Program-made: the position numbers and the translations under genes
Notes under the pieces: generated by a model
Databases searched by the model: none
Told to the model about the DNA's origin: nothing
The model's input: the letters and a program-made list of their open reading frames with translations, nothing else
DNA from: Eledone cirrhosa
Taxonomy: Eukaryota
Direction: 5' to 3'
Assembly (NCBI GenBank): GCA_964016885.1
Contig: OZ024741.1
Span: 320,850,001-320,914,000, forward strand
DNA: 64,000 bases
Shown here: positions 38,576 through 50,896 of the stretch, piece after piece
How the letters are laid out: every line of letters begins with the position of its first letter
Position numbering within the stretch: position 1 is the first letter of the stretch

Positions 38576-39275
38576 AAATTAGAATAGAATTGGTGCTCTG
38601 AAATACCGATATATATATGAATGTATATATATTGTATTTTGCAATAAATTGTATGCTTAATTAAAAGCATTTCGAAGACCTTACGCTATTGTTTTAGAGT
38701 AGTGACAGTTTCACTTACTTTAATTTTCAGCAAACAGGGGAGATAAAGCTGACAGAGCTCTCTTTCGCACTTTTTGGTGCTTATCAAAGCTAACTACTCC
38801 TCCTGTTTGCTGAAAATCATGAATGTTTGATTCTTATAGAATTCTAGTAATAATCAGGAACTGATTATACAGAGCGGTTGCCGGTCAAGCAGAAATTGAA
38901 AATTAGAATTGGTGCTCTGAAATAGCGATATATATATGAATGTATATATACTGTATTTTGCAATAAACTGTATGCTTAATTAAAAGCATTTCGAAGACCT
39001 ATCTAATTTTCAATTTCTGCTTGACCGGCAACCGCTCTGTATAATCAGTTCCTGATTATTACTAGAATTCTATAAGAATCAAACATTCATGATTTTCAGC
39101 AAACAGGAGGAGTAGTTAGCTTTGATAAGCACCAAAAAGTGCGAAACAGGACTCTGTCAGCTTTAACTCCCCTGTTTGCTAAAATTAAAGTAAGTGAGAC
39201 TGTCACTACTCTAAAATAATAGCGTAAGGTCTTCAAAATGCTTTTAATTAAGCATACAGTGTATTGCAAAATACA
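38576..39275. mobile_element. 319-bp retrozyme-like unit: about 1.3 direct copies followed by an inverted copy
   Basis: tagaattggtgctctg at 38585 and 38904; inversion from about 39002; (TA)n flanks; homologous scaffold to the 310-bp repeat. Confidence 0.85.
39093..39184 (+). ncRNA. Type I hammerhead with U3-A8 variant core (UUGAUAA), GUC site
   Basis: agct TTGATAA gcac caaaaa gtgc GAAA cag gact ctg TC agct, closed by agcaaacagg/cctgtttgct; predicted cleavage after 39158; second copy on minus at 38725-38815. Confidence 0.88.
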
Positions 39276-40073
39276 CTATATATACATATATATATATATA
39301 TATATATATATATATATATATATATATATATATATATATATATATATATATATATATATATATATATATATATATATATATATATATATATATATACTGA
39401 AATATGTATGTACAATTGAATTTAAATGGATTGCTTGCTTTGTAAAGGAAAATATATGTTACCATTGCTTGTCCCGTGATGGAGTCAATGTATATAATTT
39501 TGTCGGTGACCGTTCGCTAATTTCCGAGTTTTAGGCGGACACACAGAACCAAGACCTTTCATTTATATATAAGATAATTGTTTCATCTTACGCCATAGTA
39601 TGTGACTCGTGATGAGACATCTATCCATCACTAGATTATATATTTGTACAACCCCTCTGTCACTCTATGATAATCTTAATGCAAACAACTGCAAGATGAT
39701 CGAAAACTTTTCAACACAGGTTCTCTATCAAAAGCTATTTCTACAACAACACACAAAACAAACATAGATTCATATGCATATACATACAGTTTCTTTACAT
39801 AGATTATGAATTTAGGCTATACCTATCCTGATCGGTGTGTTAATAAATGTTTAAGCGCCAATCACGAGAAGCTAGTGTTTTCGGGAAAATAAAATGACCA
39901 GTTAATATTAACAACCTATATGTAGAACAGTAAATATGTACAATACATAATTTCACTTGAACGTGGTTGCTATCCAAACTTCGGCAACGGTGCTTTTGTT
40001 TCTTTGTTAGAAACCAGTTTATCCTTCATATAAATGAAAAAGCAAGGTATATAAATACATATATATATGTATA

Positions 40074-40262
40074 ATAATTGTTTCTACTTTTGGCACGAGG
40101 CCAGCAATTATCCCCAGTGTATTACTGGTACTTTATTTTATTGACCCCGTAAGGATGAAAGGCAAAGTAAACTTTGGTGGGATTTGAACTCAAACCATAA
40201 AGGGTCGTAACTCTATGCTGCAAAGCATGGAATCCTACCCTCTACCGATACTGCCAATCCAT
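40074..40262 (-). mobile_element. tRNA-derived SINE
   Basis: Reverse complement of the family consensus. Confidence 0.85.
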
Positions 40263-41624
40263 CGAATACAAGGACAAATGGTTACTCCTTCATTACGTTT
40301 ATTGGTTGGTGACGTGCGTTTCGCTATTGATCAGCTCAATGTTCGATTCGATCTGTATCGATCTGGCCCGACTCTGGAATCAAAACCTACAGTAACTTCG
40401 CGTTACAATACCTGGATATATATATATATATATATATATATATATATATATATATATATATATATATATATATATATATGTATATATATATATATATATA
40501 TATTTGTGTGCGTGTGTGTATGTATATATATATATATATATATATATATACATATAAATATACATATATATATACATATATATATATATATATATATATA
40601 TATATATATATATATATATATATATATATATATATATATATATATATATATATATATATATCATGAAGTGGAAACGAACCTGAGATCTTATAGATGTTAG
40701 ATGAGCTTCTTAATCACTCGGGACGTCTACATCTACGTGGATAGAGCTTGGTTGATGATGAGTGTGATTGGTTAGACGTTTGTTAGTAGCTAGGAGTTAG
40801 TAAATAGGTGGTTAGTGGTTAGAGGTTGGTGCTGGGGTTAGTGGTTGATGGTTGGTGATTGAGATTAATAGTTAGAGGTTGATGGCTGGTGATTGAGGTT
40901 AGTGGCTGTTAGTTGATGGTTGGCGTTTGGGGTTAGTGATTGGAATTTATTGTTATATGATGGATGGTGAATGAATGAAGTGTAACATCAACAAAAAGTA
41001 AAAGGAAGAAAAAAGAAAAGGAAAGAAAAAGACGATCACCTTATCGGATATAAATGTGTGTGTGTTTGTGTGTGTATATGTGTGTGTGTTTGTGAGCGTG
41101 TGGGTATATGTGTGTGTGCTTGTGAGCATGTGTGTGTGCATGCCTTTGTGTTTGTGTGTGTTTATTTGTGCGTGTGAACATGTGTTGGTGTGTGTGTGTG
41201 TGTGTGCGTGTATGTGTGTGTGCGTGTGTATGTGTGTGTGTGTGTATGTGTGTATGTGCGTGTATGTGCGTACGTGTGTATGTGCGTGTGTGTGCGTGTC
41301 TGTATGTGTGTATGTGCGTGTGTGTGTGTGTGTGTGTGCGTGCGCTTGTGTGTATGTGTGTGCGTGTGTGTGGTGTCGTGTCTGTGTGTCTGTGTGTGTT
41401 TGTGATGGAAATTTTATATTTAGTTTAATACCAATTGACAAGAGAACGGAAGATATATGGTAGCCTGGAGGAATGTGGAAGTGTGAGAGTTAGTAATATC
41501 GTTTGAATTGCAATGATTTCTATGTAATAAATGGTACGTAATAAAAGACATGTGATAAATGGTCTGTAATAAATCTAGGTAGCATGTAGCAAGGTCAGTG
41601 GAAATAGTTATTGGCAAATTCTTC

Positions 41625-42530
41625 ATCCAACAACAACAACAACAACAGCAACAACAACTACAACAAGAAGAAAAACAACAACAATAACAAGAACTACAAC
41701 AATTAACGACGACGACAACAACAACAACAGCAACTAATACAAGAACAAAAACAGCAACAATAACATAAGAACTACAACTAATGACGACAACGACAACAAC
41801 AACTAATACAAGAACAAAACCAACAGCAACAACAATTACAACAACAACAACAACTAATACAAGAACGAAAACAACAATAACGTAAGAACTACAACAACTA
41901 ACGACGACGACAACAACAACAACAACAATTAATACAACAATAACAACAGCAGTTAATACAACTATGACAACAACATCAACTGCAGTAACATTGTCAAATA
42001 GAAGCATAACAACAACAGTAGTAAACTAAACAGTAGCTGTCTCAAATGTTACAACGGTAAGAACAGCAATGACAACATAACAATGTATTGTATGTAGGCA
42101 CAACAACAACAACAACAACAACAACAACAACAACGACAACAACAATAATATTTTAACCACAACACACATGTTAGCAACAACATTAACAACTGCAGCCACA
42201 ATAAAAACTTCAACAACATCATAAATTCTAGCCAAGAGAACAATCCTAACAACAACAGTTACAGCAACAACTACAACGACGACGATGATGACGACGAGAA
42301 TGAGGACGACGACAACAACAACAACAACAACAACAACAACAACACCAACAACAACAACAACAACAAACACAACAACTACAACAACAACAACAACAACACC
42401 ATAAATTCTAGCCAAGAGAATAACCGTAACAACAACAGTTGCGGCAACAGCAAAAACTACAATGACAACGTCATACAACGATGGCAACAACAACAGCAAC
42501 AATACTAACAACCACAACCACAACAACAAT
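41625..42530. repeat. Degenerate (CAA)n/(CGA)n trinucleotide tract with higher-order subrepeats
   Basis: Direct inspection; recurring caactaatacaagaac and cataaattctagccaagagaa blocks. Confidence 0.9.
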
Positions 42531-43380
42531 CATTATCTATGAGTTGATTAGATGCAAACTGGGTATTAGTTAACGGGCTACGATATTAAATGAGTTTGCC
42601 GTTTGCTGTTTGGGATTTGAGATTTGTTGTGCAACCATGCATGAACTGTGCTGTGAATAGTATGATACAAGAGTTGCGAGAAATCGATATTATAACGAGA
42701 TAAGGATATAAGCGAAAAAAAAGATTTATTCCACGTGTGATGATATTTCGTGTAAACTACACACTGAAGCGAACCAATAAATGAGTCTCCCCTACGACCT
42801 CAGCTGATCTGATTTTTGTTTTAATTTTTATTCTATATTTAGTTAATATCTTACTCCAGGCATTCATAGGTTTTAAAGCCAACACCCCACCCCCACCCCT
42901 CCGAAGCTATTGGTCAGATCAATGTAGTTGTTGTTCAGTTTCATTATCTGTAAGGTGATAACTGAAAAGGAAATGTAAAGAGTAGGAAGTGGGAAATTGC
43001 TTGTATGTACCTGTAACTGCTGATGGAGTCGTAGGGGCTTCGTAGTAACGTACAGCTTGCTTGGGCATTTAAAACGTAGTGTAGCCTTTCCATATCAAGG
43101 TCTAAATACAGTCGGTTTATTCCGGAGAAAGAGAGAGATAAAGAGTGTGTAATAGAGATGAAGTAAGAAAGAGATATAGAATAAGAATCAACTCCAGTAC
43201 TGGCCTTCTTTAGCGGCCTTGGGGGTGTGAAAGATAAAGGTGACCTCGTTTGGATTTGCAATAAAGACACTGAGAGCAGCAAATCATTCGATCTGACGTT
43301 CAAACGGATCTTGACATTTTGCCGCCTCAGAGGGAAATTAATAGCAAACAAAACTTCCTGTCGTCAGTGGCTCTTTAAAA

Positions 43381-49970: not shown

Positions 49971-50013
49971 GTAATCTACGCGTTTCATTCTCGTTAGAAA
50001 TCATCAGGACTAC
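49971..50013 (-). ncRNA. Minimal type I hammerhead ribozyme, copy 1
   Basis: Minus: gtagtc CTGATGA t-ttct aacg agaa-t GAAA cgcg TA gattac; palindromic ACGCGT stem III; GUA site (cut between 49977 and 49976); enclosed by a perfect 16-bp stem 49949-49964/50022-50037. Confidence 0.88.
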
Positions 50014-50280
50014 ATATCCAGTGCTTTTATCGAGAATGACACAGCTAGAGACTTATAGAATACTTAGCTGTGTACAGGAACTGGTTTGAAAGAGCGGTTG
50101 CCGGTCCGGCAGAAATTAGAAATTGGAATAAATGCTCTGAAATAGCGATATATATGTGAATATAGACATAGAATATTCGAAAATATTCTGTATGTTTATA
50201 ATAAACATTTTGAAGACCTAATCGCTATAGAATAGAATACGTCACGTATTACAATTAGATTCTCGATAAAAGCAAGGGAA

Positions 50281-50323
50281 GTAATCTACGCGTTTCATTC
50301 TCGTTAGAAATCATCAGGACTAC
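50281..50323 (-). ncRNA. Minimal type I hammerhead ribozyme, copy 2
   Basis: Identical to 49971-50013, offset by 310 bp. Confidence 0.88.
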
Positions 50324-50590
50324 ATATCCAGTGCTTTTATCGAGAATGACACAGCTAGAGACTTATAGAATACTTAGCTGTGTACAGGAACTGGTTTGAA
50401 AGAGCGGTTGCCGGTCCGGCAGAAATTAGAAATTGGAATAAATGCTCTGAAATAGCGATATATATGTGAATATAGACATAGAATATTCGAAAATATTCTG
50501 TATGTTTATAATAAACATTTTGAAGACCTAATCGCTATAGAATAGAATACGTCACGTATTACAATTAGATTCTCGATAAAAGCAAGGGAA

Positions 50591-50633
50591 GTAATCTACG
50601 CGTTTCATTCTCGTTAGAAATCATCAGGACTAC
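50591..50633 (-). ncRNA. Minimal type I hammerhead ribozyme, copy 3
   Basis: Identical to 49971-50013, offset by 620 bp. Confidence 0.88.
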
Positions 50634-50896
50634 ATATCCAGTGCTTTTATCGAGAATGACACAGCTAGAGACTTATAGAATACTTAGCTGTGTACAGGAA
50701 CTGGTTTGAAAGAGCGGTTGCCGGTCCGGCAGAAATTAGAAATTGGAATAAATGCTCTGAAATAGCGATATATATGTGAATATAGACATAGAATATTCGA
50801 AAATATTCTGTATGTTTATAATAAACATTTTGAAGACCTAATCGCTATAGAATAGAATACGTCAGCTATATATATATATATGCATATATATATATA

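Follow-up and report, generated by a model that had tools for sequence, protein, structure and literature searches.

Distant subfamilies of a ~310-nt repeat in Eledone cirrhosa, probably a Penelope-spread retrozyme, carry predicted hammerhead ribozymes that appear to have diverged in place

In this work, we examined two repeat units, A and B, that carry different hammerhead ribozyme motifs within a 64,000-nt stretch (hereafter the window) of the AT-rich, 3.0-Gb genome of Eledone cirrhosa (contig OZ024741.1, positions 320,850,001 to 320,914,000). The short interspersed repeats of the window appear similar to octopod ones. A and B are probably distant subfamilies of one old, non-coding family with units of ~310 nt, whose ribozymes diverged in place by compensatory change and which is likely a retrozyme of the non-long terminal repeat (non-LTR) kind, spread by Penelope-type machinery. 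The two units are homologous over their whole length, at least 15 subfamilies form a graded series on the one scaffold, changes between subfamilies keep base pairs, stem III is palindromic in every family, and insertions consist of opposed arms in (TA)n with a tail at one end.

Global alignment of A with B yielded 216 identical columns out of 326 (66%), with a score of 214.5; 500 dinucleotide shuffles scored 18.4 on average and 57.5 at most. The sequence blocks that an initial annotation had named as common to a 319-bp and a 310-bp unit are all present and collinear, with the small corrections that one block has one extra T and that the copy at 38595 has one base altered in the first block. 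The same annotation allowed that these blocks might be an independent small repeat that merely abuts each ribozyme. This fails, given the homology of the whole unit and the behaviour of the GC-rich box of the scaffold: 17,540 of its 18,541 exact genome matches (a reversed control gave 0) run on into the same next scaffold motif, 1,074 of them in a form other than that of B. By far the commonest subfamily is B, with about 16,000 of the 17,540. The period of A is 319, as measured from the tail box at 38595 and 38914, and A is represented in the window by ~1.3 units and an inverted, 5'-truncated copy (39001-39277), with no array. No reading frame of at least 110 codons crosses the A or B units, nor is there a frame with reverse transcriptase (RT) and GIY-YIG domains, and an Rfam search of the window at the gathering threshold gave zero matches. 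A DNA search of the genome with the whole B unit yielded no candidates, as its words are too frequent. The features of the two loci are as follows.

38518-38575, no strand: (TA)n target tract, left of the A insertion
38576-38611, minus strand: tail end of the A insertion, a Penelope-type tail that passes the internal TA tract by ~30-35 nt and stops in (TA)n
38595-38913, minus strand: monomer of family A (subfamily A1), 319 bp, GC 33%
38724-38818, minus strand: A module, a 13-pair enclosing helix with a type I hammerhead motif and U3-A8 core (core 38781-38787; predicted cut after 38751; 15.2-16.2 pair broken)
38833-38841, minus strand: TATA-like invariant box with putative function, in a hairpin loop, in all families
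38855-38897, minus strand: conserved GC-rich box region of A
38914-39000, minus strand: second A unit, partial, 5'-truncated at the inversion point 39000/39001
39001-39277, plus strand: inverted A copy, 5'-truncated, hammerhead motif intact (core 39122-39128; predicted cut after 39158), with a tail-less end in (TA)n 39277-39396
49838-50864, minus strand: family B array, 3.3 units of 310 bp, 99% identical, GC 35%; 3' end tail-less in a TA run at 49838, 5'-truncated at 50864, without an inverted arm here
49950-50036, minus strand: B module 1, enclosing helix and hammerhead motif (core 50001-50007, C3-G8; predicted cut after 49977), with U.U at the base of stem II and a minimal palindromic stem III
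50260-50346, minus strand: B module 2 (core 50311-50317; predicted cut after 50287)
50570-50656, minus strand: B module 3 (core 50621-50627; predicted cut after 50597)
50092-50150, minus strand: conserved GC-rich box and tail box of B, recurring at +310 and +620

A type I hammerhead motif lies on the minus strand of both units, at corresponding positions within the enclosing helix. This bears out the original observation of two different hammerheads at one site. The core of A is of the U3-A8 form with GUC, and that of B is C3-G8 with GUA. The enclosing helix had been described as completely different in sequence but still paired. The first half of this statement is too strong, as 7 of the 13 pair positions are identical between B and A1; the second half holds, since the remaining six are double changes and both helices fold strongly (folding z-score -6.5 for B, -6.9 and -4.9 for two A copies). 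A 'true stem III' had also been ascribed to A. It is missing from the copy for which it was named (38585-38903), where position 15.2 is G and the 15.2-16.2 pair is broken, and is intact in the inverted copy at 39122-39158. As a hairpin, stem III of A is weak (-1.8 kcal/mol or none), and as a self-duplex it is strong (about -20); stem III of B is a 6-nt palindrome (-7.5). Since both pair far better between two ribozymes than within one, A and B look like dimer-type ribozymes. Across families stem III is 6 to 12 nt long. Two of the 3' hairpins bear out the claim that the small hairpins swap sequence while keeping their pairing. Another 3' hairpin does not stay in register, and little of the first 5' hairpin survives in B. 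The hammerhead motif occurs on one strand only, and the unit folds into a branched structure with ~60% of its bases paired. With a type I hammerhead in each unit, tandem monomers of ~150-400 nt, many dispersed copies, GC below 45% and no coding capacity, A and B have the features of a non-LTR retrozyme.

Searches built to avoid A and B revealed families that bridge the two; the counts given here are exact-pattern matches and hence lower bounds. Additional A subfamilies gave at least 561 matches to a variant tail pattern, family G, with a C3-G8 core, at least 558, and family H, with a CUGAUGA core and in part a U.U base, at least 868. Families J and K (at least 112 matches) have a U3-A8 core, with a stem I, loop II and enclosing helix like those of B. 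B and J have stem I and its flank in common (18 of 21 positions on the 3' side), and loop II of B is 6 nt long, as in J and K; the C3-G8 pair and U.U base of B are those of H1. Among B subfamilies, those at four loci (L029, L088, L213 and L215) have A at core position 7, and within one insertion the two arms of their arrays keep a single period (310, 311 or 312). Some 14 more hammerhead-like families, a number of them seen from one copy each, came from scanning 0.86 Mb of DNA with a descriptor (L035, L064, L072, L075, L135, L142, L153, L221).

For phylogenetic comparison, 58 units were hand-picked from 152 distinct full units to span the subfamilies, and 12 of the 21 J-type units and 4 further K units were added to give 74 rows. 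Trees of the 74 copies separate B, J and K from H, G and A in the scaffold (support 99/99), in the enclosing helix with stem I and loops (100/100) and in the whole unit (100/100). The comparison of ribozyme and scaffold trees, which the initial annotation had proposed, thus came out in agreement: the main split found with the scaffold recurs with stem I and the enclosing helix. B is placed between J/K and H with modest support (82/73). Trees built without J and K had set B, H and G3 against the rest in both scaffold (99/91) and module (100/100); the grouping of B with H was rejected on the whole unit once J and K were added (approximately unbiased (AU) test, p 0.001). The differences between J and H around the ribozyme are mostly transitions (19 vs 4 and 17 vs 5), as expected for change in place. 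Those of B show no transition bias in either module or scaffold. Of the two explanations first offered, modular exchange or deep covariation, the bridging families and the matching main split favour covariation and speak against exchange of the whole module, and these trees suggest that the ribozymes of A and B most likely diverged gradually by compensatory changes, not by a ribozyme swap.

The proposal that selection acts on RNA structure is supported by the pattern of covariation. In the 58-row alignment, 92.2% of cells were paired (85.8% in shuffles), the covariation score was 0.257 (0.142) and double-change cells numbered 297 (109); none of 500 shuffles reached any of these values, and sliding the partners lowered the paired cells to 33-44%. 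Because the copies are related by descent, the test was redone at the level of families. Double changes made up 27 of 71 changes between neighbouring subfamilies vs 3 of 186 changes private to single copies (Fisher p 2e-14), and pair-keeping changes 51 of 71 vs 76 of 186 (Fisher p 1e-5), so that family-level changes keep pairs far more often than private ones. With J included, both partners changed on one edge 30 times and one partner alone 29 times; 20,000 permutations gave a mean of 6.9 and a maximum of 18 joint changes. Covariation is located in the enclosing helix, in stems I and II, at the core 3-8 pair and in two of the 3' hairpins, and pair-keeping changes extend to stem III. The core pair has flipped between C3-G8 and U3-A8 at least twice.

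A number of points weigh against this reading. The paired structure was derived from the same sequences on which it was tested, and family states come from 3-9 copies each. Two of five measures did not exceed chance in the shuffles: pairs with a double change (20 vs 18.7; 165 of 500) and pair types (58 vs 57.3; 230 of 500). AU tests seldom reject alternatives for the long branch of B. A tree from the core only (37 columns) conflicts with the others, placing B with H and G (99/98) and A with J and K. We read this conflict as U3-A8 having been gained or lost twice; an AU test on the core columns does not reject B with J and K (p 0.26), which fits homoplasy of U3-A8 without proving it. A search for intermediates between B and J/H that carry stem III of B with another stem II found none, its 36 matches being point variants of B or members of an unrelated family. 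No partner element with the same ends as A and B was found, and their cleavage and expression are predictions from DNA sequence. The excess of G.U over A.C states, 7 to 4, is weak proof that the ribozyme strand is the one selected. Finally, the ribozyme of B resembles that of the unrelated family C, as discussed below.

One alternative is that the ribozyme and its enclosing helix move between scaffolds as a cassette, in which case the modules of A and B would be unrelated. The module does diverge faster than the scaffold (0.63 vs ~0.36 on the stem branch of B, a ratio of ~1.7), but ratios of 1.5-3 are found on other branches too. Similarly, the scaffolds of J and H are ~90% identical and their stem I and loops 55-65%, with the low identity near stem I partly an artefact of alignment, yet it is these differences that are rich in transitions. 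Module and scaffold agree on the main split, the enclosing helix alters pair by pair along the series, and when a CUGAUGA core was sought on a 5' scaffold of the A type, the matches were family H, the B module being absent from all 30 loci read. We therefore consider such an exchange very improbable. Another conceivable explanation is mutational: one arm of an inverted repeat in DNA or cDNA would be corrected from the other by template switching, giving paired changes in the long helices with no selection on RNA structure outside the ribozyme. The helices are indeed near-perfect inverted repeats that fold on either strand (z -3.7 to -6.3), and the weak G.U asymmetry is as such a process would have it. 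However, private single-copy changes, which represent mutation after insertion, are hardly ever double, the same covariation is seen at the core 3-8 pair and in stem II, neither of which is a long inverted repeat, and G.U intermediates occur along the series. This explanation, too, has in our judgement scarcely any chance of being right.

A narrower exchange, of the core only, deserves more consideration. Family C is an apparently non-coding, TA-targeted repeat of ~600 bp with its own upstream sequence, a longer tail and 22,899 pattern matches, and has CCAAT- and TATA-like boxes directly upstream of its hammerhead motif. Its 3' fragments in the window are at 1690-1780, 21294-21427, 48554-48751, 50898-50968 and 53995-54065, of which the following lie near B.

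50898-50968, plus strand: family C 3' fragment, unrelated scaffold, B-like hammerhead core
48554-48625, plus strand: further family C copy
48679-48751, minus strand: further family C copy

B and C1 agree in 10 of 11 ribozyme units; agreement of B with the families related to it, A, G and H, is limited to 2-5 units, and none of 136 unrelated pairs exceeds 9. Perhaps, then, the B lineage kept a J-like scaffold and stem I and acquired ~25 nt of core and stem II from family C through template switching by the reverse transcriptase, or else the B lineage was the donor of the ribozyme of C. In keeping with this, C is abundant, uses the same TA targets and adjoins B in the window, and B and J differ at about half of positions 3 to 11.1 while their flanks are close. 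However, J or H1 also has most of the matching units (the base of stem I, C3-G8, N7, U.U and the closing pair), leaving just two stem II pairs and the cleavage base as matches specific to C. Loop II has 6 nt in B, as in J and K, vs 4 in C; stem III of B corresponds to the middle of a K-type palindrome; and B aligns locally with C at a best score of 41, against a maximum of 44 in 60 shuffles, over the core only. On balance we judge a core swap unlikely, though it is the alternative we would least readily set aside; this is an estimate by judgement and not a computed value. If true, hammerhead cores would be exchanged between unrelated Penelope-dependent RNAs, and B would have become the commonest subfamily afterwards; together with dated older subfamilies, this would leave in the genome a record of how ribozymes recombine and how selection acts on the fold of a parasitic RNA.

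Descent of A and B from one family with compensatory change in place remains the reading we prefer, and the anatomy of the insertions indicates how the family may have spread. Arrays mostly consist of two opposed arms with the truncated 5' ends in the middle. Among 232 distinct 3' ends, 102 lie tail-less in a TA run, 79 have a tail followed by TA, and 43 and 8 end otherwise, so that 181 of 232 are at TA; 94 further 3' ends run on into the next unit. Half of the tails (40 of 79) stop at one position, and the 3' ends enter TA at two fixed sites. An inverted 5'-truncated copy, a tail of 30-40 bp at one end and a bias for (TA)n are described for insertions of endonuclease-bearing (EN+) Penelope-like elements (PLEs; Craig et al. 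2021, 10.1101/2021.04.23.441226), and the A/B insertions share the inverted truncated copy, the one-sided tail and the microsatellite target. Unlike those elements, A and B encode no RT or endonuclease.

A candidate for the mobilising partner is family F, a young autonomous Penelope-like family represented in the window by a truncated GIY-YIG element at 60300-61963. Its intact frame of 1213 residues has RT and GIY-YIG motifs, and the element has terminal repeats, a hammerhead motif and TA targets.

L241:1688-5326, minus strand: intact 1213-residue frame of family F

The frame contains an asparagine-rich insert, and its start seems to lie within the terminal repeat; the genome holds 37,265 candidates of the family. 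From its cysteine linker, we take family F to be Neptune-like. Its look-alikes in Atlas carry RT, HTH_animal and GIY-YIG families, at 0.97-0.98. Pfam gave zero matches for either the GIY-YIG piece in the window or the intact frame, a protein search with the window piece returned nothing among longer proteins, and a PDB search gave just weak RT matches (E 0.05-0.2). The boxes of A and B, one of which the initial annotation had proposed to search for in autonomous PLEs, were not found in the repeats of family F (7 loci of this one family), and homology of terminal repeats to A/B was likewise absent from these 7 long-frame loci and from family C outside the core, other autonomous families not having been sampled. 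The window has other Penelope-like remains: a decayed GIY-YIG-like frame of a second family at 36929-37474, with an inverted terminal piece at 38130-38230, and short inverted fragments of family D in TA (4982-5179, 36210-36622, 38248-38512 and 54145-54263), which start at the 3' half of a hammerhead motif and constitute another Penelope-type 3' end.

In addition to the ribozyme, the scaffold contains elements whose sequence is kept without covariation in all families, including K: the GC-rich box and, ~50 nt downstream, the TATA-like box. A third, the tail box, is located at the insertion junction. Our model predicts that a tandem copy is transcribed, probably from a promoter formed by the two invariant boxes, GC-rich and TATA-like, that precede the ribozyme, and that two ribozymes pair via their palindromic stems III and cut out a monomer, which a host ligase would circularise. 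A Penelope-like RT/endonuclease would then prime at a target TA with the unit's own UA tract and copy the unit back, with the tail box as a putative RT or endonuclease signal. If a new subfamily can be founded only by a lineage with RNA that still folds and cuts, the ribozyme region would be expected to change fast in sequence and yet keep its pairs. A 163-bp derivative of A, in four tandem copies (L051:1190-1830; G000:C1 near 56,078,400-56,079,000), is without the whole ribozyme module and the TATA-like box. Since it is tandem and has a normal tail in (TA)n, the 5' box and the 3' end may suffice for copying. Old K copies (L256, L266, L278, L286) have an octamer-like motif beside the GC-rich box in the 5' part of the unit. 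A promoter of the small nuclear RNA type has been reported from newt satellite 2, and conserved domains of salamander satellite 2, reportedly the subject of work by Green et al. in 1993, are a possible precedent for conserved scaffold boxes.

Expression, cleavage and circles have been demonstrated for non-LTR retrozymes, whose dimer cleavage is known, and the axolotl retrozymes Rtz_331 and Rtz_353 are described as slightly different repeats with two ribozyme types, one with a weak helix III and the other with a stabler helix III and U.U at the base of stem II (Cervera and de la Pena 2020, PMC7229834). A and B resemble these metazoan elements in their ~300-nt tandem monomers, GC below 45%, one type I hammerhead per unit and weak palindromic helix III, and they repeat the contrast between the two axolotl types. 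Unlike the axolotl retrozymes as described there, they belong to a graded series of subfamilies in which paired changes extend beyond the ribozyme and the core pair has flipped repeatedly. Hammerheads linked to PLEs show U3-A8 covariation, palindromic helix III, many compensatory changes and extreme variability within one genome, the cause of which was left open (Cervera and de la Pena 2014, PMC4209133). All of these traits recur here; PLE hammerheads, however, sit in the terminal repeats of coding elements, whereas A and B are frameless, and a comparison with the terminal repeat of family F, the single intact family examined, found no homology. Non-LTR retrozymes have been proposed to be non-autonomous PLEs (Li, Clavereau and Pollet 2026, 10.64898/2026.07.22.740005). 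Like theirs, our units co-occur with PLEs and come as monomers, dimers and multimers; those authors derive each family from a pseudo-LTR and favour local amplification, whereas the A/B lineage looks long-lived and, in a limited search, has no parent pseudo-LTR. Lastly, A and B are similar to viroid-like circular RNA replicons in being small, structured, hammerhead-bearing and subject to compensatory evolution, and unlike those of the Avsunviroidae type in having the ribozyme on one strand, a branched rather than rod-like fold and thousands of genomic insertions. A literature search (subscription papers were outside its scope) listed neither a study of retrozymes in cephalopods nor one of a subfamily series that covaries beyond the ribozyme, and the main text, at least, of a 2026 octopus repeat annotation never mentions ribozyme, retrozyme or hammerhead (PMC13282606).

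The B unit was also found in 20 sequencing runs (17 studies, 18 organism labels), with no RNA dataset among the listed holders. Horizontal transfer of B was considered and, on the four runs examined, set aside: in three of them, B is a single 340-nt circular contig at depth 7-34 with mere traces of neighbouring repeats (depth 2-5), which fits low-level contamination or diet, and the fourth, X5, is the sole true high-copy holder among them. In the window, a palindrome of 335 bp (49495-49830; arms 94% complementary) lies between TA runs and adjoins the B array; it is probably another inverted Penelope-type end. A big nested inverted repeat at 51069-53720, with arms of 348, 222 and 315 nt that are 97-99% complementary, is a high-copy element in run X5. 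A Pif1-type helicase fragment (46166-46765; Pfam PF21530, E 1e-15) probably derives from a Helitron.

Altogether, these repeats reveal no new class of element and belong with the known non-LTR retrozymes. What they add is a ladder of subfamilies in which the steps are preserved: the ribozyme region outpaces the scaffold about two- to threefold and yet keeps its pairs, the core pair flips, and stem III stays palindromic. The cis-signals of a retrozyme are narrowed to a few invariant boxes, and the subfamilies offer a natural panel of ribozyme variants, differing in age and success, for cleavage assays.

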